Notes under the pieces: model-generated
Told to the model about the DNA's origin: nothing
What the model saw: only the letters and a program-made list of their open reading frames with translations
The model's database searches: none
Program-made: the position numbers and the translations under genes
Shown: positions 6,153-34,757 of the stretch, one piece after another
Numbering within the stretch: position 1 is the stretch's first letter
Layout of the letters: each line of letters starts with the position of its first letter
Source of the DNA: a virus
Lineage: Duplodnaviria; Caudoviricetes
Virus record (IMG/VR): IMGVR_UViG_3300008255_000273
Location: 1-35,777 of that record
Reading direction: 5' to 3' (one strand)
Length of the DNA: 35,777 nt

Positions 6153-6154
6153 TT

Positions 6155-10879: not shown

Positions 10880-10890
10880 TTTCTAATCCT

Positions 10891-12577: not shown

Positions 12578-12808
12578 TTATAAATTCTCCCAATAAGCTC
12601 TTCCGTTATGTAGTCCTCTACGACTACCTCCTCTAGGTTTAATACACTCTTTACAAATGCGAAATAAACCTTCCTCTCGTATAAAAGGTTTTTTGCAACG
12701 AATACATATACAATTTCCTTTTATTACCATGTTTCCACCTGATTGTTTATTTTTTAAAAATATACTTACCAATATCTCCTCTGCTACTTCCAGAACTTCT
12801 GTTCCCAT
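12578..12808 (-). CDS. Zn-finger hypothetical protein
   Basis: CIRC...CKEC; TATA upstream at about 12832-12839. Confidence 0.55.
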   Translation of the reverse strand: MGTEVLEVAEEILVSIFLKNKQSGGNMVIKGNCICIRCKKPFIREEGLFRICKECIKPRGGSRRGLHNGRAYWENL

Positions 12809-12876
12809 GTATATTGTATATATTATCTAGTATATAAATATTATTGTATTATAAACTATAGTTTGCAATATATAGT

Positions 12877-13491
12877 TTAATCCTCAACCTTCCCATATAT
12901 CTCGTCTTCAGGAATGAAATCTGTATTAACATTAACATTTAAATTCTTATTCTCTGTTTGTATTTTTTGAGGAGTTAATATTCGCTCCTTCTCATTCTTC
13001 AATTTCTCCCTAGTTTCTATCGCTTTTAAGAGCATTTCTCTGAACTCTTTACTGTAGTACCCTGGAGCCCCTTTGGTTTGAATCTCCTTGAATCTATTGA
13101 GTTCTAAGTCTACAATACCATCTCTGATAAGTTCGTCGTGTATATCAATAAGATTAATCTTCGATAACATAGTATAATTTTTTATTCTAGCTATAGTATC
13201 TTGCAAAGGAGCTCTACACTCTTTAGACCCTTCTTTGTAATACCCACACATTGCACGCTCTGTCTTGGTGATTTCTTTATCTCCAACACTTATCGTATAC
13301 TTCTTTTCTCGTAAAGGACACTTATCACAACCTCCTCTACGATATTCCTCTATCAGTTTAGAATGATTTCCATGTTTTAAATGAACTTCTGCTATCTTCA
13401 ACTTTCCCCTTTTAGTCCTAGGTCCCGTCTTTCTAGCTGTTGCTATATTAGGATTCCCGCCTGGTCTACCACTATTCTTATTTCCTGCCAT
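12877..13491 (-). CDS. Candidate terminase small subunit (HGGxSTG-like N-terminus, Cys cluster)
   Basis: GNKNSGRPGG...TGPRTKRGK...LKHGNHS. Lies directly downstream of an HNH gene and upstream of, and co-oriented with, TerL. Confidence 0.55.
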   Translation of the reverse strand: MAGNKNSGRPGGNPNIATARKTGPRTKRGKLKIAEVHLKHGNHSKLIEEYRRGGCDKCPLREKKYTISVGDKEITKTERAMCGYYKEGSKECRAPLQDTIARIKNYTMLSKINLIDIHDELIRDGIVDLELNRFKEIQTKGAPGYYSKEFREMLLKAIETREKLKNEKERILTPQKIQTENKNLNVNVNTDFIPEDEIYGKVED

Positions 13492-13588
13492 CTAAAGTCC
13501 TCGAATTCAAGGGATACAAGCTCTGTATCCAATATATAATTTTGATTATAATAGTTACCAATTTTACTCCTTTAAATACTTTTCGGTT

Positions 13589-13840
13589 TTACAATCCAAA
13601 CTTCTCAATCCACCACTGAATCATCTCACCTGCTTTCTCTGGGTGGTACACTATTGCGTGGTGTTCATAACACAACAACATTAAATTTTCAATAGAATTA
13701 TTGCTTGGGTCTTTGTCTATATGGTGTATTTGTAGTTTTCTAGGCTCTGATTCTCCACATATAGTACATTGCTTATCATATAAAAGAAAAATGAGGTTTT
13801 TAACCTCAGTTGGAATCTTTGGTCTCCGGTACATCTTCAA
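13589..13840 (-). CDS. HNH endonuclease
   Basis: CTICG...LQIHHIDKDPSNNSIENLMLLCYEHH. Confidence 0.9.
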   Translation of the reverse strand: MKMYRRPKIPTEVKNLIFLLYDKQCTICGESEPRKLQIHHIDKDPSNNSIENLMLLCYEHHAIVYHPEKAGEMIQWWIEKFGL

Positions 13841-14177
13841 TCACAGGTTCTGGGTCCTTAGAAATATACTCAACTGGTTCCTTAACCTTTACAGTCTCCT
13901 TAACCTTTACCTGTTCTTTAACTTTTGCAAGTTCTTCAACTACTTCCTTATCAGCTTCCTCAACAGCTTCCTCATCAGGCTCTTCAACGACTTCCTCAAC
14001 AGCTTCACATTCTTCCTCAGGCCAGTAAGTAATCATAACCACATGCTTGTTCCCATAAAAGTAACTCACATGGTCTATGGAACATCCAAGGTTTTCTAGC
14101 TCTTCCAACTTCCCATTAACCATTGTCTCAACAGTATCAAGGTTTTGATTCTCTAACAAAATAATTCTTTCTGCCAT
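13806..14177 (-). CDS. Hypothetical protein with an acidic low-complexity tail
   Basis: E/V-rich C-terminal half. The TATA at 14200-14207 abuts the called ATG 14198, so a leaderless start at ATG 14177 is more likely. Confidence 0.6.
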   Translation of the reverse strand: MAERIILLENQNLDTVETMVNGKLEELENLGCSIDHVSYFYGNKHVVMITYWPEEECEAVEEVVEEPDEEAVEEADKEVVEELAKVKEQVKVKETVKVKEPVEYISKDPEPVIEDVPETKDSN

Positions 14178-14286
14178 AACACTTTTTAATGACTCCATCT
14201 ATATAAACTTTGTGGTTGTTACCATTTTCTAAAAACCCTAGATATTGTGGAGATTACTATACTAATATAACTTTATACTCTGAAAA

Positions 14287-14563
14287 AAAAAGTAGACAAG
14301 CTAATTCCCTCGATTTAGAGGGTCTCATGTATATGTAATAGCGTTTTCTACTTTTCTAGTCTACTTTTTGAAAAAAGGACATATGTTAAAATGTGTATAT
14401 ATATATAAAAAATATAATTTTTTTATTTTTTTATTAGAAAATTAGAAACCCTCTCCTCACCCCCCTCAAACCCTCGTAAACCTACGAATTGATTCTACTT
14501 TTGACGATTAGACAGCAGTAGAAAGTAGACAGATTCTATAGAAATTCTATAGACGTCTATAGA
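14287..14563. repeat. Repeat-rich intergenic region at the strand switch (candidate origin and/or operator array)
   Basis: AAAGTAGA in both orientations (about 14288, 14347, 14360, 14494, 14522), an AT-only tract at about 14396-14435, and TCTATAGA palindromes at 14535, 14546 and 14556. Confidence 0.65.
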
Positions 14564-14612
14564 CCACAAGGTTTATATACTTGCAAATTGTTCTTTTATT
14601 GAGGTAAAAATC

Positions 14613-14840
14613 ATGAGAAATTTAGAAACAACCACCATAGTAATAAGTAAAGGATTAGCAGAATATATCAAAGCAAAAAAGAAATATTCCCAGGAATCTA
14701 TCAACAAAACCTTAGAAAGATTGTTACTTGTATATCGTGAGGAAGAAAAATTTGCACCCTTAGATGCTTTTGAAAGACTAAAATCTAAGGTTGAACAAAT
14801 GGAAACGGTTTTGCTAAAAGTGCTAGAACCTAAGAAATAG
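14613..14840 (+). CDS. Small ribbon-helix-helix-like DNA-binding protein
   Basis: TTTIVISKGLAEYIKAKKKYSQESINKTLERLL resembles archaeal RHH/antitoxin-like proteins; C-terminal coiled coil; TATA at 14572; GAGGT RBS. Confidence 0.6.
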   Translation: MRNLETTTIVISKGLAEYIKAKKKYSQESINKTLERLLLVYREEEKFAPLDAFERLKSKVEQMETVLLKVLEPKK

Positions 14841-14847
14841 ATTTTTA

Positions 14848-16500
14848 TTAGTTTTTGTGTTCTTTAAAAGTAATTACTCCTTTTTCTTCTGAAAATAATA
14901 TACCTTCAAATTCTGAGTAAACATTATAAGCCTGTGCCTTCTTGACTCCAAAGGTTGTTTGTAACTTTTCTAGGAATTCCATCTTAGGAAGTATCTTATA
15001 TACCTTTCCTATGTTGTTTATCTTCTGAGCGTATCTTTCACGTCTATTTTCAACTTTTGCTTCTTCCTTAATGTTACTCTGTACCCAGTTCATGATGCTC
15101 TTAAAACTCTTTTCTATGAATTGTAAGCTACGTTCAATATCTACAGGCTCTACTTTACTGCTTTTTCTTATTGCGGCATTGTATAATCCAATAACATTAA
15201 CCAAGCCGTTAAACCTTCCAAAGAAGGTGTACATTAAGTCTTTGTGTATTTCGTTGTCAAGTTCGTTGTCTACTTCATTAATAAACTCATGCATCTTTTC
15301 CTTAATCATCTTATGAATTTGTTTCACTTCAACAATCTCAAACTGTGTGTCTTTAAAGAAAATGTAAAAATCATATAATTTGTTTGCTAGAGACTCCATA
15401 TCTTTTTTTATATTATCATAGTGGTTGGGGGTTAACATACTGTTGTCAATTACTTTGTCTATCATACTAATACGAGTATCCTTATTAATTTTTCTCATAT
15501 AGTTAATTGCTCTTTGTTGTAATCCTGTGTTTACTAAGTGTTCCTGCATGTTCTCTATAGGGCGTGTTGCTCCTGTAATACATGCGTTGCATATTGTTGT
15601 AGTAGAGTGTCCATTCCATTTAATAAGTGTCTTTGTAATTGAACGTCCTTCCATACTTTGTAAAAGGATTTCTCTCTTGCTTTGTTTACCCTCAGAACTT
15701 CCTCCTTTAAACAAAAAACTACACTCCCTAAGAATTAATAAATCGTTGCTACTAAGTATTCCTTTAATAGGTTCTGCTTCTGTGTCTACTTGTCCATTGC
15801 TTTTAGAAGGGTAATGGTCTAGTAGTGTTTCCATGGTTTCTGTTCCTGACAGTTCCATGTAGGTTATTAGGTTTTTTGAACCGTAGTTCTTTTCTTTGTG
15901 TATTTCATTAATGTTGTCTGATAAGGCCATAAGGTAATCGAAGCCCCTATCCTTGCCGCTTCCGCTATCTTGCACGAGGAAGAAGTGTTGAAATAAATTA
16001 ACATTATTTCCTAAAACAATGTCATTCCTCTGTTTACTAAGCAAACTAAGCATAACGTAGAAAATACATTCTCCTACAACCTCGTTGTCGAAACTGTAAC
16101 GGTTATAAATTTGAATGAACTGCTCGTCTAAGTTGTAGAACTTTTTAATTGCTTCTGTTCGCTCTTGTAGTTTGGCTTCGTCAATAGCAATAATCTCTTT
16201 TTCCTCAGGTTTATAAATCTTCTTACAACGTGCTCCTACTCTATCCCAAACGGATGCTTCTGATAAATATTTGTTGTGTAACTCATTATCTTCCTCAGGA
16301 GCTACATAACCTTGCTTCTTATACAAGGCATCGTACTCTATATTATATATGTCATTTGCTTCTTTTAATAATTCTTCATAAGAACTTAATATAATGTCCT
16401 CAGGGAATTCCTTTTCCAATAAGGTAAAAAACATTAAAGATACTCTATTCTTACCTAACACTTCCTTTTTTGACACCATAAAGTTATTTGAGAGTTGCAT
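14848..16500 (-). CDS. MCM-like AAA+ ATPase (putative replicative helicase/initiator)
   Basis: Walker A QDSGSGKD, GILSSNDLLILRE (variant Walker B), LLQSMEGRSITK, GATRP, GLQQR, and a probable C-terminal winged helix. Start may be ATG 16479. Confidence 0.6.
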   Translation of the reverse strand: MQLSNNFMVSKKEVLGKNRVSLMFFTLLEKEFPEDIILSSYEELLKEANDIYNIEYDALYKKQGYVAPEEDNELHNKYLSEASVWDRVGARCKKIYKPEEKEIIAIDEAKLQERTEAIKKFYNLDEQFIQIYNRYSFDNEVVGECIFYVMLSLLSKQRNDIVLGNNVNLFQHFFLVQDSGSGKDRGFDYLMALSDNINEIHKEKNYGSKNLITYMELSGTETMETLLDHYPSKSNGQVDTEAEPIKGILSSNDLLILRECSFLFKGGSSEGKQSKREILLQSMEGRSITKTLIKWNGHSTTTICNACITGATRPIENMQEHLVNTGLQQRAINYMRKINKDTRISMIDKVIDNSMLTPNHYDNIKKDMESLANKLYDFYIFFKDTQFEIVEVKQIHKMIKEKMHEFINEVDNELDNEIHKDLMYTFFGRFNGLVNVIGLYNAAIRKSSKVEPVDIERSLQFIEKSFKSIMNWVQSNIKEEAKVENRRERYAQKINNIGKVYKILPKMEFLEKLQTTFGVKKAQAYNVYSEFEGILFSEEKGVITFKEHKN

Positions 16501-16597
16501 TATTTATAAACCTTTTGTTTGTGTGAAGAAATAATTTAGATATATATGGTGTATTACACAAATCTTTATATACTTGTACTGTTTAATATATGGTAAA

Positions 16598-17947
16598 ATG
16601 ATAAAAATTATTCCTTATTTAGAAAAATTAGAAATAACATCTTCAACGTTGGAAAAGCAAAACATTCTTCAAGAACTGTTGCAAGTTGAGGGAGCTAGAG
16701 AAGTGTTGGAGTTAGTATATAATAGTGAGACTTACAACTTGTCTACCCGTAGCTTTGAAAATATGTTTGGTAGTATAGGGGAACTTTCAGACCCTGGACT
16801 TCTTGTGGCTGGTAAAGTTAATGGACAGTTTGAGTGTTCTTGGAAACATCTTGTAACTAGAATCATTCCCTCGGTTAAGCAAGAGAGTGGAAATCTTTTG
16901 TTACAGAACACCAAACGGGCCTTAGAGCTTCTTAAACCTCTCCACGCAAAGTGGGTTACTAGAGTACTAAATAAAGATTTACGTGTAGGGGTGCAAGTTA
17001 CACTCGTTAATAAAGTGCTTTCTAAAATGGAACTCCCTATAATATATGTTCATGATGTACAACTGGCAGAGAAGATAGACGATATTACCTCATGGGACAC
17101 CTTTCCTATAGGAGTTGGTACTAAGTATGATGGAATGCGTTGTGAAGTTGAGAAAAAAGGAGAATTTGTTAAGCTAACTTCTAGACAGGGAGAAAACATT
17201 GCTTCATACCTTCCAGAGATTGTTGAACATTTCAAAACATTCGATGGAGATTTTATTATTGACGGAGAAGTAATGGCTAAGGATTTTAATACCTTACAAA
17301 AAAGAATAGGTAGAAAAGCAGAAAACATAACTACTATCGAAGGGTTATATTTTAGGGTGTTCGATATTCTTGAATATGCAGGAAACGATTATACTACTGC
17401 TACACAACTGGAAAGAACAGAGAGTTTAAGACTATTGTTTCCTGAAACTGAAATGTTCAAACATGAAGTATTTTGGATAGTAACTAATAAAGAACAGTTA
17501 CTAAAAATATGGAATGAACACATGGACAACAAAGAAGAAGGAATAATGATTAAACTACTAGACAAACCTTACAACAGAGGAAGTAGGAAGAACTGGTTTA
17601 AAGTTAAAAAATATGTTGAAAACACCTTCGAGGTTACTGGTTGGGATTATGGGAGTGGGAGATTCTCTAAAACTGTGGGAAAGATTCATGTTAAAGACAT
17701 CTCTGGAACTGTTACCAGTTCAGTAGGAACGGGGTTAACTGATGACATGAGAAACTACTTATTACAACTTGCGGGGAGTGAGGAGCTCATTGGAAGACTT
17801 GTAGAAGTAGGTTACAATGAGGTGTCCAAAGATGCGAGAGGAAACAAGAGTTTAAGACACCCTCGTTTCTTGAAGTTTAGAGACGACATTTCCCAAGCTG
17901 ATAACCTGGGGAGTCCTGAGGGTAACGGTTTAATGAAATGGCTATAG
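16598..17947 (+). CDS. lig: ATP-dependent DNA ligase
   Basis: KYDGMR, IIDGEV, FRVFDIL, EGIMIK, WFKVK, VGTG, SLRHPRF. ATG 16598 lies downstream of the TATA at 16565. Confidence 0.95.
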   Translation: MIKIIPYLEKLEITSSTLEKQNILQELLQVEGAREVLELVYNSETYNLSTRSFENMFGSIGELSDPGLLVAGKVNGQFECSWKHLVTRIIPSVKQESGNLLLQNTKRALELLKPLHAKWVTRVLNKDLRVGVQVTLVNKVLSKMELPIIYVHDVQLAEKIDDITSWDTFPIGVGTKYDGMRCEVEKKGEFVKLTSRQGENIASYLPEIVEHFKTFDGDFIIDGEVMAKDFNTLQKRIGRKAENITTIEGLYFRVFDILEYAGNDYTTATQLERTESLRLLFPETEMFKHEVFWIVTNKEQLLKIWNEHMDNKEEGIMIKLLDKPYNRGSRKNWFKVKKYVENTFEVTGWDYGSGRFSKTVGKIHVKDISGTVTSSVGTGLTDDMRNYLLQLAGSEELIGRLVEVGYNEVSKDARGNKSLRHPRFLKFRDDISQADNLGSPEGNGLMKWL

Positions 17948-20049: not shown

Positions 20050-20119
20050 ACGAGACAGTATTATTAATCACAGGAATAATATTCTTCGGAATGTGGATCC
20101 TAACAAACCAGAGGAAAAA

Positions 20120-20482
20120 ATGAAAACTTCACACAAAATGATAATCATGGTTGATGCAGACCTTAAAATGCCAAAAGGAAAATTAGCAGGACAAGTTGCT
20201 CATGCGGCGGTTTCCTGTGTTATTAAGGAAATCTTAAAGGGTCGAATCATACGAGTTGCTCAGTGGTTACAAACAGGTCAAAAAAAAGTAGTAGTCAAAC
20301 CTAAAACTACTTTTGATATAGATATAATTGAAATAGGTTCTAAGACAAAGGAATCAAATCCTAGTATAGTAACAATCAAGGACCTTGGAAAAACAGTATT
20401 CATCGGACCAACAGTTACTTGCTGTGCTGTAGGATTATTAAAAAATGATGATATTAGCTTGGACTCATTCAAGTTATTATAG
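20120..20482 (+). CDS. pth2: Peptidyl-tRNA hydrolase, Pth2 type
   Basis: LKMPKGKLAGQVAHA, W..TGQKKVVVK, DLGKT, T.TCCAVG, C-terminal KLL. ATG 20120 follows GAGG. Confidence 0.85.
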   Translation: MKTSHKMIIMVDADLKMPKGKLAGQVAHAAVSCVIKEILKGRIIRVAQWLQTGQKKVVVKPKTTFDIDIIEIGSKTKESNPSIVTIKDLGKTVFIGPTVTCCAVGLLKNDDISLDSFKLL

Positions 20483-22356: not shown

Positions 22357-23502
22357 ATGAAAGATATAAAATCTATGAGTAAAGAACAGTACATCGCCTG
22401 GCGTGCAGAGAAAGTTGACATGGATGTAGAAACAGTTGCAAAAATGTGGGAAGAGTTTGAATCAGAAGCTAAAGAGATTGGACTTACTGATACTGATACT
22501 TTTGTTAAGAAAAGATTCAGTCAAGCATTTATTAAAAAAGATAAAGGATTTGGTAAATCACCAACTGTAGAAGTTGAGGTTATTCTTATTGGAATGAAAG
22601 AATCAGATTATGGTGCAGCAAACCAAATCAAAGAGGTTCTTAAAATTATTACTAACGAAGACGGAACTTTAAAAGAAAAATCTGTATTGGAAGCTGCTAG
22701 AAACCAAGGATATATTAATGAAAACATCGAACCTTTATTCCACTATGAGAACTCAAAAAACAGAAAAAATGGAACTGTCATTGACTTAAAGAAAGAAACT
22801 CAATGTGAGTTTACAGTTGTAGGTAAGCGTTTGGATAAACCAGATGAGTTTACAAAAGGAACACTGAGTATAGCAAAACATAAATTAAGTGGTATGCCTG
22901 AATTTGGAACTGTTTACAAAACAGAATTAACAGTAAGTAGTAAAAGTGATAAAGATAAAATTATTCTCTTTGGAGATGACCGAACAGTTTTCAAAAATGG
23001 AACAATTTTAAAACAAGAGCAAATGGACAGTTTGATTTCTAACTTCTTTGGAAACATTATGTTTAGTATGTCCGATCTTAAAGATGTAGCTGTAAACTAC
23101 CCTGACCCTAATGTGGAGAAGTATGATAAATATGTAATAGTTAAGGCGTGTGTAGCTGATGTGAATTTAACAAGAGAGGGGATTGGAAACAAACTACTAC
23201 TAACTGATGGTTTTGATGAAGATGCTTTCTGTGATACTTGGGTTCCAGAAAATTTTAATATTAATTTCAACACTAATGCTCAGGATATCTGGGTGTATGG
23301 GGTAATAGGGTTTGATGAAAGAAACAGTATGCCTGTAATTAATGTTTATGGATTATATGTTCCAGAAGTTTACAGACTAAAAGAACAACCAAAACCAATT
23401 TCTCCAGAGACTGTTGAAACTGTTGAGACTCCTTCGGTAGAAGAAAAGAAAGAAGAGGTTACTCCCTCCGTTAAACCCCAAACTGGAGGGTTTACTTTTT
23501 AG
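22357..23502 (+). CDS. Putative multi-OB-fold ssDNA-binding protein
   Basis: Beta-rich sequence, first large gene of the replication operon, flexible acidic tail ending GGFTF. Inferred from context only. Confidence 0.4.
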   Translation: MKDIKSMSKEQYIAWRAEKVDMDVETVAKMWEEFESEAKEIGLTDTDTFVKKRFSQAFIKKDKGFGKSPTVEVEVILIGMKESDYGAANQIKEVLKIITNEDGTLKEKSVLEAARNQGYINENIEPLFHYENSKNRKNGTVIDLKKETQCEFTVVGKRLDKPDEFTKGTLSIAKHKLSGMPEFGTVYKTELTVSSKSDKDKIILFGDDRTVFKNGTILKQEQMDSLISNFFGNIMFSMSDLKDVAVNYPDPNVEKYDKYVIVKACVADVNLTREGIGNKLLLTDGFDEDAFCDTWVPENFNINFNTNAQDIWVYGVIGFDERNSMPVINVYGLYVPEVYRLKEQPKPISPETVETVETPSVEEKKEEVTPSVKPQTGGFTF

Positions 23503-23512: not shown

Positions 23513-24394
23513 ATGGCAGGATTTAGTTTAGATACTACTCCTCCAAGTTCTCAACCAGCAACCTTATCGGTTGAGACAGAGGAGTTTGACTTAGAGAAAA
23601 TTAAAAAGTTTTGGCTTGAAGAAAACATAATTCAAGAAAAACTGGTTGCTTTAGTTTATGGACAAGATGGTACCTGTAAGTCTGGGTTAGTCGCTGAATA
23701 TTTAACAGATGAAGATATTAAAGCGGGAAAGAAAATGTTAATCATTGACTTGGATGGTGGATTCGAAGTATTACTCCCTAAATACCATAAGGAACGTTGT
23801 GAAAAAGCAGGAAAAAAACTTAGTGATGTATTCATTGTTAAGAATCCTTTAATTCTAACGAATGGGGGAGAAATCGATTATAAGTCAACATACAATAGAA
23901 TTAACGAAGCAGTGTTTTTAGCTAAGAATTTACATAAAGAACTAAATTTAAAAGCTATTGTTTTCGATGGACTTACTACGGCTTTAAACTACGCAGAAAA
24001 CATTATGCGTATTGAAAAAAACCTTACTATTGATGGTGGAGCTAACATTGCCTTTTGGAAAATTAGAAATAAAAGATTTTTAAACCCACTTGAACAAATA
24101 AAGTCTTTGCCTATTAGTAGTTTTTTAATAGGACACGAAAACTTTATTTTGAATGAACTTGATGGAGATAAAAATAGTAGTGTAATGGTTAAAACTAGTG
24201 CTATGGTTCATCAAAAAGTAAGAATGTCTAGAACAGTAAACAAAGCTACAGGAACAGTTGTGTTCAAAGCTACAGTAGATAAAAGCAAAAACAATGTAAG
24301 AGCAGAAGGTAATGAGTATAACGTCATTGTATTAAATAAAAATAATGATGAATATGAATTAAAAACTTCTAATCTATTCAAAGACTTATTATAA
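23513..24394 (+). CDS. AAA_24/Sak4-like P-loop ATPase (recombination)
   Basis: LVYGQDGTCKS, IIDLDGG, IVFDGLT, LIGH. Confidence 0.75.
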   Translation: MAGFSLDTTPPSSQPATLSVETEEFDLEKIKKFWLEENIIQEKLVALVYGQDGTCKSGLVAEYLTDEDIKAGKKMLIIDLDGGFEVLLPKYHKERCEKAGKKLSDVFIVKNPLILTNGGEIDYKSTYNRINEAVFLAKNLHKELNLKAIVFDGLTTALNYAENIMRIEKNLTIDGGANIAFWKIRNKRFLNPLEQIKSLPISSFLIGHENFILNELDGDKNSSVMVKTSAMVHQKVRMSRTVNKATGTVVFKATVDKSKNNVRAEGNEYNVIVLNKNNDEYELKTSNLFKDLL

Positions 24395-25613: not shown

Positions 25614-26519
25614 ATGATGAAAAATTATATATTTACTGAGAAGCATAGACCTAAGACCTACGACGATGTAATAGGCATGCCAGAAAAGTTAAGGCTACAG
25701 CTTGATAACTTAACTGAAAAGATGTGCATTTTATTAACAGGCACTCCAGGAACGGGAAAGACAACTACTTCAAAAATCTTAGTTAATAAACACAAAGAAA
25801 ACGCAATCACACTAAACGCTTCTGATGAACGAGGGATAGATGTTGTCCGTAATCGTATTAAAAACTTCGCAACAAATGCTAGTATTGATGGGGGAGTGAG
25901 AATAATTAACCTGGAGGAGTTTGACGAAATGACGGCAAATGCTCAAAATGCTCTTCGTAACTTAATGGAAGAGATTCCTAATGTTGTTTGGATTCTTACG
26001 GGAAACTATGAAGCAAACATTGTGGACGCTATTAAAAACAGATGTGACCATTATAGGTTTATTGCTCCAGATAAAAATGAAGTTCATACACTATTAAATA
26101 AAATTATTGATTCTGAGAAAATTAAAATAAATAATGTTGAGATAATTGAAAAAATTTTAAATAATCATTATCCTAGTATTAGAGGAATGGTTAAGGAATT
26201 ACAGAGATTAACTTTCCTAGGGAGAGAAGTTACTTTAAAAGATGTTGAGAGTTCAAAAGAAGATTTACAAAAAATTTATACTAGCTTTTCAAGTAAAAAC
26301 TTTAGTCAAACAAGACAACTGGCTATTGATAGTGCTATAGACTATCCTACAATTATTATATACTTACATGATAAAATACTAAAAGATGAGAAAGTAAATC
26401 CTGCTAATAAATTAGAGGCAATCTTAATTATGGGAGATAGTTTACGTCATATTAAAGGAGTTCCTAGTAAAGAAATAGAATTTGAAACTATGATTTATAA
26501 TTGTTTTAAGGTGATGTAA
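25614..26519 (+). CDS. rfcS: Replication factor C small subunit (clamp loader ATPase)
   Basis: EKHRPKT..DVIG, GTPGTGKTT, LNASDERGIDVVR, EEFDEMT..AQNALR, NRC. Confidence 0.95.
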   Translation: MMKNYIFTEKHRPKTYDDVIGMPEKLRLQLDNLTEKMCILLTGTPGTGKTTTSKILVNKHKENAITLNASDERGIDVVRNRIKNFATNASIDGGVRIINLEEFDEMTANAQNALRNLMEEIPNVVWILTGNYEANIVDAIKNRCDHYRFIAPDKNEVHTLLNKIIDSEKIKINNVEIIEKILNNHYPSIRGMVKELQRLTFLGREVTLKDVESSKEDLQKIYTSFSSKNFSQTRQLAIDSAIDYPTIIIYLHDKILKDEKVNPANKLEAILIMGDSLRHIKGVPSKEIEFETMIYNCFKVM

Positions 26520-26720: not shown

Positions 26721-27206
26721 ATGATAGATATATGGTCAGTTTGGAATATGTTACACGCAAAAAATTCAAACTATCTTTTAAACTTTGAAGATGGTTGGTT
26801 ATTTCCTTATATTAGTCGACTTAGGGGTCGGGAGAAGCACCTCCGTTATATTAATTCTGTGAATAGAATGGTTTTTGGGTGTCCCCCAAAATTACTGCAC
26901 TCAATACTATTCTATTCGATTGACCCTGACCCCTGGGTCTCTTCTCCCAAAGCTACCAAGTTTGATGAGAAAAAACTAGAGGTTGTAAAACCTTATATTA
27001 AAAGTCTTTTTGATTGGAGTGAGAGGGATTTCAATGAACACAAAAAACTTATTGACAATTTTCTTAAAGATGAAAATTTTTTAAAAAAATTAAATGAACA
27101 CGTTAGTTTAGAAAAAAAGGAGGCGAAAGAACTTGGACTTGAATTTGTTAAATATAAACCAAAACCAAAACCAAAAGAAAGTAGTATCAGTCTCACTAGC
27201 TTCTAA
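26721..27206 (+). CDS. Putative second clamp-loader subunit (gp62/RFC-L C-terminal analogue)
   Basis: Synteny after RFC; helical; K/P-rich tail ending in PIP-like SISLTSF. Confidence 0.45.
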   Translation: MIDIWSVWNMLHAKNSNYLLNFEDGWLFPYISRLRGREKHLRYINSVNRMVFGCPPKLLHSILFYSIDPDPWVSSPKATKFDEKKLEVVKPYIKSLFDWSERDFNEHKKLIDNFLKDENFLKKLNEHVSLEKKEAKELGLEFVKYKPKPKPKESSISLTSF

Positions 27207-27614: not shown

Positions 27615-27668
27615 TAGTTGATAGGAGCTCACAACCCTTAACCAACTAAAATAAAAAAATTGTGAGGT
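27615..27668 (+). promoter_or_regulatory. Candidate riboswitch-like H-type pseudoknot in the queD 5' UTR
   Basis: P1 TAGTTG(27615-20)/CAACTA(27643-48); linker AAATAAAAAAA; P2 CTCACAA(27628-34)/TTGTGAG(27660-66), overlapping the GAGGT RBS; TATA at 27582. Confidence 0.55.
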
Positions 27669-27676
27669 ATTACAAA

Positions 27677-28171
27677 GTGTTAATAACAAAAAGAATTGGA
27701 ATAGACATGGGCCACCGGGTGCCTAACCATCAAAGCAAGTGTCGTCATTTTCACGGACACAGATATTCTATTGAAGTGGGAGTTGATGACAAAATTATTT
27801 CTACACCAGGAACGCCTGACGAAGGTATGGTGATTGATTTTGGTGACCTAAAACAAATTATGATGGAAGAAATAGATGCTAAATTTGACCATGGATTCTG
27901 TATGTGGAAAAATGATATGTATGCACCAGTTTTTCAAGAACTAAAAGATGGTTATAACTTTGAGTTTCAAGATGGGAGAGAGTGGAGAACCGAAGTTACA
28001 GATAAACCTTTTCAAAAAATTATCTTTGTTGATTTTATTCCAACTGCAGAAAACTTAGCTAAACATTGGTATGAACTAATTAAACCTAAGTTAGCAGAAA
28101 GAAAAATTAAAATTAAACATGTAAAGGTGTGGGAAACTCCAACAAGTACAGCAAAGTATGAGGAAGAATAA
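27677..28171 (+). CDS. queD: 6-carboxy-5,6,7,8-tetrahydropterin synthase
   Basis: GHRV..H.SKCRHFHGHRY, IDFGDLK, PTAENLA, VWETP. GTG 27677 follows GAGGT. Confidence 0.92.
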   Translation: MLITKRIGIDMGHRVPNHQSKCRHFHGHRYSIEVGVDDKIISTPGTPDEGMVIDFGDLKQIMMEEIDAKFDHGFCMWKNDMYAPVFQELKDGYNFEFQDGREWRTEVTDKPFQKIIFVDFIPTAENLAKHWYELIKPKLAERKIKIKHVKVWETPTSTAKYEEE

Positions 28172-28172
28172 A

Positions 28173-28919
28173 ATGGAAAAGCTAAATGTAAGTGAAACTT
28201 TTTATTCTCTACAAGGAGAGGGGGAGTATTGTGGATATCCAGCAGTGTTTTTTAGATTACAGAACTGCAATTTATTCTGTGGAATGCCTAAAGGTGATTT
28301 AACAAAACCATGTGATGGTTGTAAATGGGTTTGTGATACTATTGCTGTTTGGCAGAAAGGGAACTCAAAAACTTTTGATGAAATATTAGACGAGTGGGAC
28401 TCTTCCGGAATTACAAAAAATTTAGAAGACGGTGCTCACTTAGTAATTACTGGTGGAGAGCCTTTACTACAGCAAGATGCTATTGTTATTTTTATTATGT
28501 ACTTTATAGAGTTCAAAGGGTTTGTTCCTTTTATTGAAGTTGAAACAAACGGAACTATTAAACCAAGTGATGAAATGTTCACTCTTGTTGATAGATTTAA
28601 TGTGTCTGCAAAACTCTCTAATAGTGGTAACCCAAAACCAATGCGTTACAAAGAAGACGCCTTAGAATGGCATACAAATAATAACACCAGCATATTTAAG
28701 TTTGTAACTTTAGACGAAGAGGATACTGACGAAATTTTTGAAGATTTTATTAATAAGTTCAGTATCCCTAAAGATAAAATCTGGTTAATGCCAGGAGCTT
28801 ACGACCGAGAAATGCTTTGGAAGAACGGGCAGACAATTGCTGAACTTTGTAAAAAGTATGGTTTCAAAATGACAAGCAGAATGCACGTTGAGATTTGGGA
28901 CAAATTGACGGGAGTTTAG
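28173..28919 (+). CDS. queE: 7-carboxy-7-deazaguanine synthase (radical SAM)
   Basis: ETFYSLQGEG, RLQNCNLFC...WVCDT, ITGGEPLLQ, VETNG, SAKL, RMH. Confidence 0.95.
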   Translation: MEKLNVSETFYSLQGEGEYCGYPAVFFRLQNCNLFCGMPKGDLTKPCDGCKWVCDTIAVWQKGNSKTFDEILDEWDSSGITKNLEDGAHLVITGGEPLLQQDAIVIFIMYFIEFKGFVPFIEVETNGTIKPSDEMFTLVDRFNVSAKLSNSGNPKPMRYKEDALEWHTNNNTSIFKFVTLDEEDTDEIFEDFINKFSIPKDKIWLMPGAYDREMLWKNGQTIAELCKKYGFKMTSRMHVEIWDKLTGV

Positions 28920-28924
28920 AGAAA

Positions 28925-29374
28925 ATGGATTTCATAATAGGAACAAAAACCGACAGCATTAGTTCTGTTCAGGCAGAGAACGGTCAGAATAAAAAATTTA
29001 TTTCCTGGATAGAGTTTGAACAATATATGGAGGAGTTAGCAACAACTCTAATTAAAAAAACTAACATAGATTACTATAAAAATATCTACGGTTTACCTAG
29101 AGGAGGCTTAATTGTAGCAGTTTGGCTAAGTCACAGATTAAATAAACCTCTTATTTTAAGTGAATCTGATATCGAGAAAGATACTCTAATTGTTGATGAT
29201 ATTGCTGATAGTGGAGAAACCATGTTTGCATTATTAACTAGAGTTAAAAAAGTAACAAGACCAACGATAGTGTGTATTGTTCATAAAGAACACACTTCTT
29301 TTATTAAACCTGAGTTTGCAGCAATTACTACAAGGTCAGATGATTGGATTGTATTCCCATGGGAGGTAAAATAA
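28925..29374 (+). CDS. Type I purine phosphoribosyltransferase (Gpt-like)
   Basis: GLPRGG, PRPP loop LIVDDIADSGET, WIVFPWE. Confidence 0.9.
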   Translation: MDFIIGTKTDSISSVQAENGQNKKFISWIEFEQYMEELATTLIKKTNIDYYKNIYGLPRGGLIVAVWLSHRLNKPLILSESDIEKDTLIVDDIADSGETMFALLTRVKKVTRPTIVCIVHKEHTSFIKPEFAAITTRSDDWIVFPWEVK

Positions 29375-29375: not shown

Positions 29376-30044
29376 ATGAGTTTAGACATAACAAAAGTAG
29401 ATGGAATTACAGGTTATAAGGTTAATCAGTATTTATTAAAGAAAGGAGTGGAAACTCCTAAGTCTGGTTTAAGATTTAGTAAGAAGGAACAAATTGAAGT
29501 GATTAAAAATAATTTCACCCAAATAATGCAGGTTATGGGTTTAGATTTAACAGATGACAGTCTAATTGAAACTCCCAAACGTGTTGCAAAAATGTTTGTC
29601 AATGAAATCTTTTGGGGTTTAGACTATCAAAACTTTCCTAAGATTACAGTTGTAGATAACAAAATGAAATATGACGAGATGGTTTTTGAAAAGAACATTA
29701 ATGTCATGAGTGATTGTGAGCACCATTTTAGAACAATTTTTGGAAAGGCCCACGTAGCTTATATTCCAAATAAAAAAGTTCTAGGACTAAGCAAACTAAA
29801 TCGTATAGTAGAGTTTTTTTCAAGAAGACCTCAAATTCAAGAACGACTAACTGAACAAATATTTTATACTCTTGAATATTTATTAGGAACTAAAAATATT
29901 GCTGTAGTTATTGAAGCAGAGCATATGTGTGTAAAGCAAAGGGGAGTTGAGGATGTTGGAAGTTCTACAGTAACCAGTAAATTAGGAGGCTCTTTCAAGA
30001 AACGTCCTGAGCTTCGTGCTGAATTTATGGGGTTAACAAAATGA
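29376..30044 (+). CDS. folE: GTP cyclohydrolase I
   Basis: ETPKRVAKM, CEHH, GLSKLNRIV, QIQERLT, HMCVKQRG. Confidence 0.97.
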   Translation: MSLDITKVDGITGYKVNQYLLKKGVETPKSGLRFSKKEQIEVIKNNFTQIMQVMGLDLTDDSLIETPKRVAKMFVNEIFWGLDYQNFPKITVVDNKMKYDEMVFEKNINVMSDCEHHFRTIFGKAHVAYIPNKKVLGLSKLNRIVEFFSRRPQIQERLTEQIFYTLEYLLGTKNIAVVIEAEHMCVKQRGVEDVGSSTVTSKLGGSFKKRPELRAEFMGLTK

Positions 30045-30724
30045 AACCAGTAAGAACAAATATTCATGGACTAGACGTAATTATGAGACACGATTATATT
30101 GGAGAAATGAATAACTTACAGAAATATATAAAATTTTCTGTAGAATTTATTGATAATTTTATTAAAAAAAATAAACATGATATTAAAAGTGTTTTATGTG
30201 TAGGTTGTGGAGATGGGTATGAAGTAAAATTATTTAAAGACTTAGGGTATATCTGTGTAGGTATAGATGCTTTTCCTGTCGAGGACTACGGTTTAGTTCA
30301 TGGAATAGATATATTCAAAGCCAGTTTTAGTAACTTTAGTGACTTGACAGGAAAAAACTCTTGGGATTTAGTTTTTGTTAACCACTCTCATGAACACACT
30401 CCTAACGCTTATGGACTAACTCACGAGATATCAAAAGTATTAAAGAAAGGTGGATTAGTATTTGACGACGTTCCTTATGCTAACGACGATTGGGGTTGGA
30501 GTATTTCTCATTCAACCACTCATTTTAGTCTATTTACTCCTCCCTTCATGCGAACAATGTTTGAGAGATATGGTTTTGAAACTAAATATATAGACCTACA
30601 TGAAATGATACCAGTAAGAAACCCTAGATGTAGAGAGATTATTTATATTGGACAGTACACTGGAGAAGTTCCAGAAGAGTACAAAGGTTTTATTGGAACA
30701 ATGGAGGGATATAACAATGAATAA
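30041..30724 (+). CDS. Class I SAM-dependent methyltransferase
   Basis: VLCVGCGDG, GIDA, WDLVFVNHSHEH, LKKGG; start and stop overlap folE and queC. Confidence 0.85.
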   Translation: MKPVRTNIHGLDVIMRHDYIGEMNNLQKYIKFSVEFIDNFIKKNKHDIKSVLCVGCGDGYEVKLFKDLGYICVGIDAFPVEDYGLVHGIDIFKASFSNFSDLTGKNSWDLVFVNHSHEHTPNAYGLTHEISKVLKKGGLVFDDVPYANDDWGWSISHSTTHFSLFTPPFMRTMFERYGFETKYIDLHEMIPVRNPRCREIIYIGQYTGEVPEEYKGFIGTMEGYNNE

Positions 30725-31508
30725 ACACAAATCAATGGAAAAGAGATTAGTTATTATGTTAAGCGGAGGACTAGACTCTAGTGTAGCTTATCATTACGCT
30801 TTAAATAAAGGATTTAATAAAGACGAAATTGTTTGTATTTGGTTTGATTTAAACCAGCCATATAATACTAAAGAAAAAGAAAGTTTAGATAAAATTGGAA
30901 TTCCTTACGAAACAATTAAACTAGATTTGATTCAAGAGAAATTTAACAATATTCCTACCAAAGACCACCCTAATCAAATTATTCCTGGGCGTAATTTAAT
31001 CATGGCTACAATTGCTGCAAGTTTCGGAGAACGAATTTGGATGATGGCGTTAGACGGAGAGACACACATGAACACGATAGAGCGCGATAAATCAACTAAG
31101 TTCTTTCAAGACACTACTAACTTGCTTACATATATCTTCAACGTGAAGCGAGATATAACTGTTCTGGAGAGTCCTTTTATGAACATGAGTAAAACAGACA
31201 TTGTTAAGTGGGCTATTGACCATGGAGTATCCGAAGAATTTTTAAAGAATACTTCTACCTGCTATGACGAGAGTTTACACAACTGTGGAGAATGTGGAAC
31301 TTGTTTTAAACGTTGGATTTCATTCAAGAACAATGGAGTGGAGGAAGAGTACACAAAAAATCCGTGGGAATCAGACGATGCTAAAAAACTTATTGCTAAC
31401 TATAAAGAAGCATTTATAAACAATGACTTCTCACATTATACAAAGAAGAGAATCGAGGAAACTTTTGAAGCTCTTAAAAAACAAGGTGTAATGAATGACA
31501 ATAATTAA
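30717..31508 (+). CDS. queC: QueC-family ATP pyrophosphatase (atypical 7-cyano-7-deazaguanine synthase)
   Basis: PP-loop SGGLDS, IPGRN, SPF...SKTDIV, TCY....CGECGTCFKR; YPDCR replaced by ERDKS. ATG 30717 follows GGAGGG. Confidence 0.85.
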   Translation: MNKHKSMEKRLVIMLSGGLDSSVAYHYALNKGFNKDEIVCIWFDLNQPYNTKEKESLDKIGIPYETIKLDLIQEKFNNIPTKDHPNQIIPGRNLIMATIAASFGERIWMMALDGETHMNTIERDKSTKFFQDTTNLLTYIFNVKRDITVLESPFMNMSKTDIVKWAIDHGVSEEFLKNTSTCYDESLHNCGECGTCFKRWISFKNNGVEEEYTKNPWESDDAKKLIANYKEAFINNDFSHYTKKRIEETFEALKKQGVMNDNN

Positions 31509-32529
31509 ATATGCTTCGGCAGGTTGTGAATCCAGATATTTACAACCTAATTTAAATTTTGGTGCTTTCCTATCTAAGTGTGTCTTAATTAATGCTACTG
31601 CGTTAAACAATAAAAGAGATAGTCCTTTACTTAGTAAAATCAACGAAATGAAAAAAAATGGGTTTATTATTCTTGTTGATAGTGGTGGATTTCAATTAGC
31701 TACAGGAGCGTGTAAAGATTTAAATGTAGGGGAAATTATAGAAATTCAAAATTTGTATGGAGATATAGGTATGATGTTAGATGTTCCTCCTATCAAGGGA
31801 GAACTTAACTGGAAATACTTTAGTGAGTGTTTAGAGGAAACTAGAATAAATTTACACAAAGCTAAAAATTATAAAAAGAATTTTAAATATTACTTCGTGC
31901 TTCAAGGTGAAACTTTTGAAACATTAGATACTTGGTATAATGAACTTAACCATATAGATACTTTTGATGGGGTTTCGTTAAAAGGGTTAACTTTAGAAAA
32001 AATGTTGCTTGCAGCAATGTACGCTATTGATAAAACAGATTATAAAAATTTTCACTTCTTAGGAGTAAGTTCAACTAATAGACAGATTTTAATTGATTAT
32101 TTGTTTAAAGGAATGGACGACAGCTATTTTGTGACTTATGATTCAACGACTCCTGTGATGTTAGGTAAGAGTAAAATGATGAAGTTTCCTTTCTCAGACG
32201 TGACATTATCTTTTTCAAAAGTAAAAAATTTCGATGATTTTAAAGATGTTCTTCAAGTTGAAAATGATTTTAACTCAATTATCTCCCTTAATGTATTAAA
32301 TATTAATTTACAGCAATTGTTTATTAAAAATATGGTTCATGACCGAAAGTTATTAGAGGATGCATTTTCAAAATATAAACTAAAACCTTACTTTGATATA
32401 ATAGATTATTTTTTAGCTAATGGAAGAGATATGAAGAAAACTATAATAAAGTATAGTTCCTATTTTGAAGATAAGATTCCTTCTGGAAACACTGGAGTCA
32501 AACAAGCATCACTGTTAGGGGAGTTTTAA
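31495..32529 (+). CDS. dpdA: TGT-superfamily guanine transglycosylase, DpdA-like
   Basis: VDSGGFQ, MLDVPP, VLQG, FHFLG, YDST; no C-terminal Cys Zn site. Context points to a DNA substrate. Confidence 0.75.
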   Translation: MTIIKYASAGCESRYLQPNLNFGAFLSKCVLINATALNNKRDSPLLSKINEMKKNGFIILVDSGGFQLATGACKDLNVGEIIEIQNLYGDIGMMLDVPPIKGELNWKYFSECLEETRINLHKAKNYKKNFKYYFVLQGETFETLDTWYNELNHIDTFDGVSLKGLTLEKMLLAAMYAIDKTDYKNFHFLGVSSTNRQILIDYLFKGMDDSYFVTYDSTTPVMLGKSKMMKFPFSDVTLSFSKVKNFDDFKDVLQVENDFNSIISLNVLNINLQQLFIKNMVHDRKLLEDAFSKYKLKPYFDIIDYFLANGRDMKKTIIKYSSYFEDKIPSGNTGVKQASLLGEF

Positions 32530-34422
32530 ATGGAACCTCTAGAAAGAATAAAATCAATAAAAAAGATAGCAATCCAAGACGAAGATACATTAAATTGTTT
32601 TATTTCTGAACTTCGCTCCTCTGAATATGTAGCGACAGATACTGAGACAAGTGGTCTTGAATACGTTGGAATGGTTATGGCTGGTTGTTCCTTTTACATG
32701 GGTGGAGATATTGCTTTTTACTTTCCTGTGAAACATAATACTGGAGAAAAACAACTCCCCTTAGATTTATGTATTAAAACTTTAAAGGAGGAGTTGAAAG
32801 ATAAAAAACTAATTCTCCATAACTTTGTTTTTGATGCTATAGTTTATAGAAAGAATAACTTTGATATCACTAACCATAAATATTTTGATACTATGGTAGC
32901 GGCTCATTTGATAGATAATAGACAGTCTAAAAAATTGAAGGAACTGGCAAAAAGTTATTTTGGGTATGAACAAACCACTTTCGACATGATAGCTAAACTT
33001 GTAGACCACGATTCGACAGAAGTTCGTATTGATATTATGACTCCTTACGCTTGTGATGATGCTATTGTAACTTATATGCTTTTTGAGGTATTCAAACTAC
33101 AACTTAAAGAGTGGGAGTTGGAACACTTATTTTATAATATAGAAATGCCATGGTTGCCTGCTTTAATGAGTGTTACAGAAAATGGAGTCAAGTTTGATAT
33201 GGATAAATTAATGTCATATGTTAAACCTATTAATGAGGAAATGGAACATTATAGACGAGAGATATTCAAGTTTAACAAAAGTGAACAAATGACTTTATTA
33301 GGTGGAACGGATAATAGTTTTAATATAGACAGTAATACTGAGCTAGCTTTATTTCTTTACAAACGTTTAAAGCTTCCTATACTTTCAAGAACAAAAGATG
33401 GAGCGGCTCAAACAAATTATGATACTCTTATACAACTTAAAGACCAACACGTTGTAATCGAACATATCCTATGTTATAAGAAACTTGCAAAGTTAAGGAA
33501 TTCCTATGTTAAAAGTTTTCCTAAAAGAATTAGTAAAGACGGATATTGGCATTTAAGTTACAACAACACAGTAACAAAAACAGGACGACTTTCCGGGGAT
33601 AGTCAGCAGTTGCCTAACGTTGACAAGCTTAGTGGTTGGGATAAAGAGGTTACTTTAAGGTATAATATTAGAGACTGTTTAACTGTCGAAGATGATGAGA
33701 CCATGATTGCTGTGGATTATAAAGCACAAGAATTAAGAGTTGCCGCATTCGTAGGAAATGATAAAGGTCTTAAAGAAGTTTTTGAGAAGAAACAAGACAT
33801 GCACTTAAAGACAGCTAACTCCTCTTATGAATTAGGTTTAACAGAGGAACAGATTAAAGACGGTTCAGAAGAACATAAAAAAGCAAAGGAAGAATATTAT
33901 GGTCAAAGAGACAAGGGAAAAACCACAAACTTTCAAACACTATATGGTTGCAGTCCTTGGGGGTTATCTGAAACTTTAAAAGTTTCTGAGGACGAGGCAA
34001 AAAAGTTAATTGAAGGTTTCCGAAAAGCTTATGCAGGAATTATTACTGAACAGAAAAAAACTTTCGAGTTTGCTTTAAAAAATGGATATGCTAGAACACT
34101 ATTTGGACGTATTGAAAGGTTTGACAAACCTAAAAGCAAAAAAGAGGAGGGGGAGTTAGAAAGAGAATCAGGTAACTTAATTATTCAAGGTTTTTGTGCA
34201 GATGTAACTAGAGTTGTAGGAGCCAAAATTTGGCAACGGTTCAGAGATACAGATTTAAAAATTCAGATGTTTGTACACGATGAATTTGTACTCAAATGTA
34301 AAACAGTTAATTTAGATAAATACATTCCAATAATAAAAGAAATTATGGAAAATTCGGTTGTAAGTGACCCAAAACTTTTGGTTGATATAGGAACAGGAAA
34401 AAATTATGGTGAGGCAAAATAA
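32530..34422 (+). CDS. polA: Family A DNA polymerase with 3'-5' exonuclease, no 5' nuclease
   Basis: Exo motifs DTETSG, HN..FD, YACDDA; polymerase motifs TGRLS, DYKAQELRV (A), RDKGKTTNF..LYG (B), VHDE (C). Confidence 0.95.
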   Translation: MEPLERIKSIKKIAIQDEDTLNCFISELRSSEYVATDTETSGLEYVGMVMAGCSFYMGGDIAFYFPVKHNTGEKQLPLDLCIKTLKEELKDKKLILHNFVFDAIVYRKNNFDITNHKYFDTMVAAHLIDNRQSKKLKELAKSYFGYEQTTFDMIAKLVDHDSTEVRIDIMTPYACDDAIVTYMLFEVFKLQLKEWELEHLFYNIEMPWLPALMSVTENGVKFDMDKLMSYVKPINEEMEHYRREIFKFNKSEQMTLLGGTDNSFNIDSNTELALFLYKRLKLPILSRTKDGAAQTNYDTLIQLKDQHVVIEHILCYKKLAKLRNSYVKSFPKRISKDGYWHLSYNNTVTKTGRLSGDSQQLPNVDKLSGWDKEVTLRYNIRDCLTVEDDETMIAVDYKAQELRVAAFVGNDKGLKEVFEKKQDMHLKTANSSYELGLTEEQIKDGSEEHKKAKEEYYGQRDKGKTTNFQTLYGCSPWGLSETLKVSEDEAKKLIEGFRKAYAGIITEQKKTFEFALKNGYARTLFGRIERFDKPKSKKEEGELERESGNLIIQGFCADVTRVVGAKIWQRFRDTDLKIQMFVHDEFVLKCKTVNLDKYIPIIKEIMENSVVSDPKLLVDIGTGKNYGEAK

Positions 34423-34757
34423 TGACAGGTAAAAAGTTTGATTCAGGAAATAAAGTTAGGTGGGATTGTGTTCCTTGGGAAATCATTGAAGGAGTAGCAA
34501 AGGCAATGACCTATGGTGCAGTTAAATATAATGAAAACCCTGATAACCCTAATTGGATAAAGGTTGAGAATGGGAAACACCGTTATTTTGCAGCTATGAT
34601 GAGACACTTTACGGAAGACCTTAAAGGAGATGTTTTTGATAAAGACGCAAAGGAATCTTTTGATATGGATATAGAGCATTTAGATATGTTTTTATTTAAT
34701 GCTGTTGCGTATGTTTATTTTAAGAGGAATGAAAGAACCAAAAAGTTTATAAAGTAA
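34422..34757 (+). CDS. DUF5664 dATP/dGTP diphosphohydrolase-like protein
   Basis: GKKFDSG.K.RWD.VP...A.AMTYGA.KY...NW...RY.AA..RH. Confidence 0.8.
   Translation: MTGKKFDSGNKVRWDCVPWEIIEGVAKAMTYGAVKYNENPDNPNWIKVENGKHRYFAAMMRHFTEDLKGDVFDKDAKESFDMDIEHLDMFLFNAVAYVYFKRNERTKKFIK

Follow-up and report, generated by a model that had tools for sequence, protein, structure and literature searches.

The window analysed here is the whole 35,777-nucleotide stretch of the IMG/VR virus record IMGVR_UViG_3300008255_000273 (Duplodnaviria; Caudoviricetes). Near its end, two adjacent genes encode a TGT-fold guanine transglycosylase related to DpdA2 and a family A DNA polymerase (PolA), and each protein carries a short peptide, QASLLGEF at the C-terminus of the former and QMTLLG at the thumb tip of the latter, that resembles a sliding-clamp-binding motif. 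The best explanation, to which I assign a probability of about 0.65 on the basis of sequences and models, is that both are conserved, compact docking peptides for the virus's own clamp of PCNA/gp45 fold. That the two peptides bind a sliding clamp of some kind is the safest part of this proposal and quite probable. That the partner is the viral clamp, PolA thereby taking over, as processive replicase, the role of the PolB found in relatives with similar clamps, is likely. That base exchange is functionally linked to replication through the transglycosylase tail is a tentative suggestion, to which I give somewhat less than even odds.

Both peptides lie where the initial annotation of this DNA had placed them. 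The transglycosylase ends in KQASLLGEF directly before the stop codon, the lysine being encoded at 32500-32502, and translation of the polymerase gene yields QMTLLG at residues 253-258. Among the 59 open reading frames (ORFs) of the window (10,778 amino acids), the pattern Qx[ST]L[LF]G is found at these two sites only, where 0.02 occurrences are expected for a pattern that was chosen post hoc. A DNA duplication between the two motifs was considered and rejected: their codons differ, so neither stretch was copied from the other. The annotation had likened the peptides to the Qxx[LIM] start of a PCNA-interacting protein (PIP) box. QASL and QMTL do fit positions 1 and 4, but the aromatic residues that the canonical definition, QxxhxxAA, places at positions 7 and 8 (PMC4929162) are missing, these positions being E and F in the transglycosylase peptide and G and T in that of PolA. 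A relaxed version of the canonical form is present in 3 of 109 homologues (filtered set). Both peptides resemble compact motifs of the Q-x-[ST]-L-[FL], or QxxLF, type and are not canonical PIP boxes. The window's own peptides read QxxLL, and three of the five close PolAs read QxTLF. The encoded clamp has two domains and is therefore not the three-domain beta clamp with which the QxxLF class is partnered.

The PolA insert occupies, as the annotation had stated, the thumb site at which T7 polymerase carries its processivity domain: T7 gp5 (V01146) has a large insert at the matching place, before FNPSS (residue 334), presumably the thioredoxin-binding domain. The segment from G219 to L276 measures 57 residues in the window's PolA and in its four closest relatives among the 120 matches listed, as compared with 46 residues in all 107 full-length (>850 amino acids) Pol I matches and 115 in T7; a thumb domain of ~70 residues is thus absent from the window's enzyme. 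In an AlphaFold2 model (30-row alignment, mean predicted local distance difference test score (pLDDT) 90.9), the motif lies between thumb helices 224-246 and 269-279, in a loop of lower confidence than the rest; residues 251-260 average 71. The polymerase residues D37, E39, D102, D177, D396 and D584 are invariant in a 12-row alignment. Conservation of the motif in homologues was borne out, for PolA, by five close enzymes, 43-76% identical, all of which display QxTL[LF]G (QMTLLG twice, QRTLFG, QKTLFG and QQTLFG).

A search with three more distant insert-bearing PolAs led to 38 viral loci. In a FastTree phylogeny of 59 rows, built without the insert columns and with Shimodaira-Hasegawa-like (SH-like) support only, a 19-row clade (support 100) unites the window's group, the viral record L216 and 13 further sequences, of which ten come from viral contigs of up to ~50 kb and three are proteins without context. 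The thumb segment is 57-63 residues long in all 19 rows, and 17 fit the post hoc motif, the other two reading QFTLD and QLDLE. Over the whole tree, the motif is present in 21 of 31 long thumbs, versus none of 28 short ones. On account of this clade and of the long/short pattern, the insert, whose core is [ST/N/G/D]-L-F-G and often Q-led, looks like one old acquisition. Two sets of thumbs were also noticed. A clade comprising L201-L215 (G033-G043; contigs up to ~50 kb) has segments of 62-63 residues with TLFG, NLFG or AFW motifs; no clamp or loader was detected in this clade, whose members are candidates for host-clamp use. In P0006, L058 (6785-8461) and L069 (11077-12852, divided over two ORFs), PolA begins with a uracil-DNA glycosylase-like domain; P0006 retains the thumb motif, which L058 and L069 lack.

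The transglycosylase is a viral gene inside a FolE/QueD/QueE/QueC cluster. Its profile A3 matches the archaeosine TGT 1iq8 (E value 2e-8) and scores DpdA2 of phage nt-1 at 42.6 bits; the latter reaches 78.5 bits, with an E value of 4e-20, against the broad profile A4, and 7 bits in a phmmer comparison with the window protein. Profile A3 finds nothing in 9g, CP220, phiST, HVTV-1 or immuto 2-6A (0/5), and HVTV-1, CP220 and phiST remain without a match in the A4 search as well; the placement with DpdA2 is tentative. The residues D62 (within DSGGF), D96, H187, G190 and D216 are invariant in 11 rows, and I take D62, D96 and D216 to be the equivalents of the TGT catalytic residues. Judging from context only, the substrate would be DNA rather than tRNA. 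Since FolE, QueD, QueE and QueC are present and no amidotransferase was seen, the predicted product is dPreQ0, as in the pathway of PMC6884629.

The tail of this enzyme belongs to a recurrent type. An exhaustive search gave 265 homologues, 150 of which were listed; 144 of these were counted, six of less than 300 amino acids being left out. Of the 144 TGT/DpdA2-like proteins, 35 have a Q-led motif within their last 14 residues. The same motif occurs in 0.79% of internal windows; 1000 rounds of tail shuffling produced 2.9 such tails on average and 9 at most, and among 840 control C-termini, taken from other viral ORFs, 11 match. Adding the Q-less core raises the count to 52 of 144, versus 31 of 840 controls, and adding T4-type tails to 57 of 144, enrichments that are not formal probabilities because the patterns were written after the tails had been viewed and the sequences are related. 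The window's enzyme falls in a 12-member clade (FastTree, SH-like support 98; the 11 members included in A3 are on average 29% identical in pairwise comparison), in which the loose core is present on all 12 tails and six are Q-led, examples being QKSVFDF, QTNIFSYL, QSNIFNF, QSSLLDFM and KTLLDF. The family consensus is Q-x-[ST]-[LIV]-F-x-F. Tandem TGT paralogues, each with a clamp-like tail of its own, were noticed in L080 (three, 12628-16105) and L075 (two, 9740-12183).

The clamp on which these peptides are proposed to dock had been annotated as a viral PCNA, an assignment that holds: the ORF has a two-domain PCNA/gp45 fold, and loader genes adjoin it. The fold is taken from an ESM Atlas model, with TM scores of 0.77-0.79 to PCNA clusters over ~223 residues and a feature score of 0.95 to gp45-slide_C clusters; a single-sequence monomer model reached a pLDDT of only 33.5. 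The protein matches the NCBIfam archaeal clamp (E 2e-5), its profile A6 has H. volcanii PCNA as best match (E 9e-5), with the C-terminal YIVAPK aligned to YMLAPR, and its profile A7 matches T4 gp45 (E 6e-21) and PCNAs. An iterated local profile ties the small loader subunit to small ORFs beside gp44-like genes. Relatives of this subunit end in ESASLFDF, KAKTLFEF, QGSLFSF, GKSLFDF or TKTLFDF, and these [ST]LF forms agree with the earlier view of its tail, SISLTSF, as a clamp-type end. The same view of the ligase tail, GNGLMKWL, found no backing, as the single ligase homologue seen (in L216) lacks the tail and the loci examined earlier contained no homologue to compare.

Other viruses combine the same elements. 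In L216 (G041), the region 2327-9295 encodes a clamp, a loader, a small loader subunit (RGKSLF), QueE, a TGT ending in KNLFGFTK and a PolA with TDLFG in its thumb, the PolA being 34% and the TGT 28% identical to their counterparts in the window. L216 can be taken as an independent replicate of the clamp, loader, TGT and PolA set. L055 encodes a PolA with QRTLFG, a loader and, as small subunit, a protein that ends in ESASLFDF. The viruses with the closest clamps (L059, L080, L239 and L245-L249) display the motif class on several proteins: small loader subunits end for instance in KTLFEF, GSLFSF or KSLFDF, PolBs in KTKTGLFSFT, QKVGLFAFK or KTGLFAFT, and TGTs in NNISSWF, SNLFGW or QSNIFGF. In T4-like loci, the TGT tails QSLDEFF and KISSFFG resemble the [ST]LESFF-type ends of PolBs in related loci. 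The L058 small loader subunit begins with QRTLFDY. In a jumbo-phage group, four genomes pair a motif in the PolA thumb with one on the TGT (SGNLFG/SSLFG, GSSLFG/GSLFG, KGLFG/GGLFN and QGLFS/NGLFN). The simplest reading of this distribution is that the peptide would be a general clamp adaptor, which in this virus would engage the viral clamp and, in viruses lacking a clamp of their own, that of the host.

Some of these loci deserve a remark of their own. The TGTs of jumbo phages L067, L070, L074, L077 and L078 (G007, G009, G010, G013 and G014) have an internal [SG]LF after the core, with a matching GLFG-type motif in the PolA thumb of the four for which that thumb was read. Jumbo phages without a strong RFC match were considered as negative controls and rejected as such, for they carry TGT [SG]LF and PolA GLFG-type motifs and G010 has a DnaX-like loader; a scan of 50 of the 104 candidate ORFs of G010 identified no clamp. 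A 759-residue helicase-methyltransferase-like fusion in L059 (1776-4052), which ends with QPITLF and KSLFDF, is a candidate clamp client. In phage PA5oct (gp168; L057, 5752-7374), a TGT homologue adjoins PolB and clamp genes, and its internal FNSLFDV matches the PolB tail FDSLFGW; PA5oct is a cultured system in which clamp binding by a TGT could be tested.

Several observations weigh against the proposal. The comparison of clamp-encoding with clamp-less viruses, which the annotation had called for, gave a mixed result: L216 and L055 do pair the motif with loader genes, but the association is not clean in either direction. A PCNA/gp45-type clamp or loader was found in only one (L216) of 11 thumb-insert records, and two records that have the thumb motif without clamp or loader are 100% complete, with terminal repeats, so that the thumb motif can exist without a viral clamp. 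Conversely, L058 and L069 encode a clamp, a loader and a TGT together with PolAs that lack the insert, and the TGT tails of L058 and L248 display no clear motif. The motif alone therefore does not point to a viral clamp. As to the peptides themselves, neither fits the canonical PIP definition, both carry L at a site that is F in most relatives (LL being weaker than LF), all motif patterns were drawn up after the sequences had been seen, and the PolA loop, with 5 invariant positions out of 15, does not exceed the level of invariance of the protein as a whole (186 of 630). On the transglycosylase side, 87 of the 144 homologues counted fall outside even the broadest pattern for the last 14 residues, and the characterised nt-1 DpdA2 ends in AEYPDFKS, with no evident tail motif. 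Finally, PolA is the sole polymerase on the contig, and a second one could be encoded outside it since the contig is a fragment. The annotation's claim that both proteins dock on the viral PCNA is accordingly favoured by conservation, by the position at the thumb tip, by the viral clamp and loader and by L216, but it is weakened by the fact that the motif is not tied to viral clamps.

Docking on a host clamp (bacterial beta clamp or archaeal PCNA), besides or instead of the viral one, would make the thumb motif an inherited host-clamp adaptor. QxTLF fits the beta-clamp motif QxxLF equally well (PMC12926913), and the insert (EKNLFG, TPTLFG, QKTLFG, QCNLFD, QLDLE) persists in a sister clade of viruses of 30-50 kb, in which no clamp or loader of the PCNA/gp45 type was found, two complete genomes included, the beta clamp having been searched for in L005 only. 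In the window virus and in L216, by contrast, a like tail is present on the viral loader small subunit, whose expected partner is the viral clamp. A host-clamp role is judged unlikely here. It is somewhat less likely still that both proteins bind the viral clamp with the TGT tail providing modest recruitment to a post-replicative reaction that has no functional link to the fork. This account overlaps the preferred one, from which it differs in the last step only. DpdA insertion has been described as a post-replicative event, DpdA2 of VH7D is active on plasmid DNA in E. coli and the modification by DpdA2 concerns <0.1% of G (bioRxiv 10.1101/2023.04.13.536721), nt-1 DpdA2 has no tail motif, and T4 alpha-glucosyltransferase binds gp45 although expression levels explain its share of modification (PMC13216743). 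Yet a family whose members share ~29% identity has kept the tail, and the flavour of the tail tends to match that of the polymerase encoded in the same genome; both facts argue for selection on the tail. Roles foreign to clamps altogether, with the thumb loop serving another processivity protein or DNA, the TGT tail serving dimerisation and the likeness between them arising by chance, appear improbable: motifs of one class are found, within the same viruses, on loader subunits as well as on polymerases from two families, and the enrichment of TGT tails is far above three controls. What such roles have in their favour is that the patterns are short and post hoc, that the LL form is weaker than LF and that T7 uses the thumb site for a partner other than a clamp.

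If both peptides dock on the viral clamp, as preferred here, the loader would open the ring at primer ends and PolA would grip it through the thumb-tip peptide, making a processive enzyme of a Klenow-type polymerase. FolE, QueD, QueE and QueC would provide preQ0, which the transglycosylase would exchange for guanine in finished DNA. Its flexible tail might occupy vacant pockets of the putative trimer, or bind clamps that stay behind on freshly copied DNA, and modification might thereby be concentrated on newly made viral DNA, these last two steps being the weakest. The tail is more likely a device for localisation or efficiency than a requirement for catalysis. Coupling to the fork is treated with caution because a DpdA2 works in E. 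coli, where the clamp of its phage is absent, and the share of T4 alpha-glucosyltransferase is set by expression. A speculative and rather unlikely history would be that a viral Pol I lineage gained the thumb peptide for host clamps and that the branch including the window virus, L055 and L216 displaced PolB from a viral replisome of archaeo-eukaryotic type and adopted the virus's own PCNA-type clamp and RFC-type loader, the ring then being shared by a DpdA2-like enzyme that swaps guanine right behind the fork, on viral DNA only.

These features can be set against known systems. T7 gp5 is likewise a family A polymerase with a thumb-tip insert just before FNxxS that serves processivity (PMC3201878), but its insert is a ~70-residue domain that works with thioredoxin, whereas the window's PolA has an 11-residue peptide and a predicted ring-clamp partner. 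Replicases made of PolA, PolIII-beta and PolIII-gamma have been proposed for phages RSL1 and Ma-LMM01 (PMC3201878), which resemble the window in encoding a family A polymerase beside a clamp and a loader. They differ from it in that the window's clamp is of the two-domain PCNA/gp45 type and its loader of the RFC-small/gp44 type with a small subunit, and the accessible account maps no motif on their PolA. In actinobacterial PolA2/APEX, a QxxLF motif of a family A polymerase has been modelled in the beta-clamp pocket (PMC12926913). There too the motif is in an unstructured loop; that loop, however, is part of an inactive exonuclease domain, in a cellular enzyme of probably low fidelity, while in the viral PolA described here it belongs to the thumb and the exonuclease residues are intact. 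An RFC-like loader without a detected clamp is described for some jumbo phages whose polymerase is T7-like (PMC7824862).

On the side of modification, T4 alpha-glucosyltransferase co-purifies with gp45 (Sommer 2004, cited in and confirmed by PMC13216743), and promoter strength, not gp45 binding, was judged to set its share of glucosylation (PMC13216743). It thus offers a post-replicative viral DNA-modifying enzyme associated with the viral clamp, albeit an unrelated enzyme with another chemistry and with no motif given in the accessible text. The general idea of a clamp-bound viral DNA-modifying enzyme has therefore already been described for T4 and, PolA2 having its QxxLF motif, the concept is not categorically new. 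The nt-1 DpdA2 is related at profile level to the window's enzyme, which is encoded with the same minimal dPreQ0 set FolE-QueD-QueE-QueC-DpdA (PMC6884629); the window's enzyme is very distant from nt-1 DpdA2 in direct comparison, is shorter and, unlike it, has a clamp-type tail. Archaeal PIP-box clients (PolB, RFC, Fen1, NucS and NreA; PMC4929162) carry, like the window's transglycosylase, a Q-led motif at a flexible C-terminus, the first residue being Q and the fourth L, but the aromatic pair at 7-8 is absent from the window's peptides. PCNA, RFC and family A polymerases are not mentioned in the accessible part of PMC8651126, and no description of a DpdA clamp tail or of a PolA-thumb/PCNA pairing was found among the papers listed by searches of the openly available literature, supplements aside. 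If correct, the proposal would add a third route to family A polymerase processivity, a thumb peptide on a PCNA-type ring, after T7 thioredoxin and the proposed beta-clamp pairing. The clamp, the two loader subunits, PolA and DpdA form a small, entirely virus-encoded set that can be reconstituted, which opens to testing how post-replicative DpdA enzymes locate viral DNA and why the modified share of guanines varies between <0.1% and 100%. A Klenow-type polymerase stimulated by a clamp could, in addition, serve as a tool.

Spanning 35.8 kb, the window represents part of the genome of a tailed double-stranded DNA virus, with a terminase and a portal-MuF protein encoded on the minus strand (Table 1 lists the features discussed). 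From 16.5 kb onwards, a block devoted to replication and modification encodes an ATP-dependent ligase, an OB-fold protein, an ATPase-like ORF, the clamp, the loader ATPase and the small loader subunit, followed by QueD, QueE, a phosphoribosyltransferase, FolE, a methyltransferase, QueC, the TGT-fold enzyme and PolA, and at its end a dATP/dGTP diphosphohydrolase and a PD-(D/E)XK nuclease.

Table 1. Position and identification of the features discussed, in window coordinates.
Feature	Position	Strand	Basis or remark
ATP-dependent DNA ligase	16574..17947	+	tail GNGLMKWL (17921-17944), weak clamp-motif candidate
Two-domain sliding clamp, PCNA/gp45 fold, 251 aa	24703..25458	+	ESM Atlas model, NCBIfam, profiles
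Clamp-loader ATPase, RFC small subunit/gp44 type	25614..26519	+	NCBIfam RFC small E 9e-46 vs DnaX E 1e-20; Gp44_lid E 4e-4
Small clamp-loader subunit	26721..27206	+	gp62-like position and profile; tail SISLTSF at 27183-27203
QueD	27662..28171	+	family-profile matches
QueE	28158..28919	+	family-profile matches
Purine phosphoribosyltransferase-like protein	28895..29374	+	family-profile matches
FolE (GTP cyclohydrolase I)	29376..30044	+	family-profile matches
Class I S-adenosylmethionine methyltransferase	30041..30724	+	Pfam-type match
QueC (preQ0 synthase)	30648..31508	+	family-profile matches
TGT-fold guanine transglycosylase, DpdA2-related, 344 aa, predicted inserter of preQ0-type bases into DNA	31495..32529	+	Pfam TGT E 7e-5
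C-terminal clamp-binding-like peptide QASLLGEF of transglycosylase	32503..32526	+	translation and homologue tails
Family A DNA polymerase, Klenow-like (3'-5' exonuclease and polymerase, no 5' nuclease), 630 aa	32530..34422	+	Pfam PF00476 E 6e-73, PF01612 E 3e-25
Thumb-tip loop, residues 249-263, with 11-residue insert	33274..33318	+	alignments and model
QMTLLG clamp-binding-like motif of PolA, residues 253-258	33286..33303	+	Q253, T255, L256 and G258 invariant in 5/5 close PolAs
dATP/dGTP diphosphohydrolase (PF18909), directly after PolA	34422..34757	+	profile match

In the near-identical strain L053, the block extends further and includes genes for an exonuclease of DnaQ type and for a PriS-like primase. 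The best scores of clamp, primase, ligase and the peptidyl-tRNA hydrolase Pth2 are to archaeal-type families, which, together with the loader, suggests an archaeal host, although phages too encode archaeal-type replication parts (PMC4889955), a fact that weakens this reading. If the host is archaeal, the system might represent a PolA-PCNA replisome in an archaeal virus. A scan of GTDB genomes for the TGT clade confirmed none of 25 candidates, IMG/VR scans with the single PolA or TGT protein returned no relatives, and a word-index protein search returned the TGT itself only. The pattern QELRVAAF had no match in viral and genome contigs and four in metagenome contigs, these including the window's own contig and a near-identical strain.

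Other genes of the window call for brief comment. The methyltransferase between FolE and QueC may further modify the deazaguanine, and the phosphoribosyltransferase and the diphosphohydrolase could hint at editing of the nucleotide pool, a pre-replicative route beside the transglycosylase. The ATPase-like ORF (23513-24394) ends in TSNLFKDLL, a possible additional clamp motif, and the OB-fold protein (22357-23502) resembles archaeal RPA/SSB clusters, at the level of a lead only. A 550-residue ORF on the minus strand (14848-16500), with no Pfam, PHROG or NCBIfam match, may by eye be an MCM-like helicase. Also on the minus strand are the portal fused to a MuF-like domain (1198-3618) and a cobalamin adenosyltransferase (4756-5268), and the Pth2 gene is on the plus strand (20093-20482).

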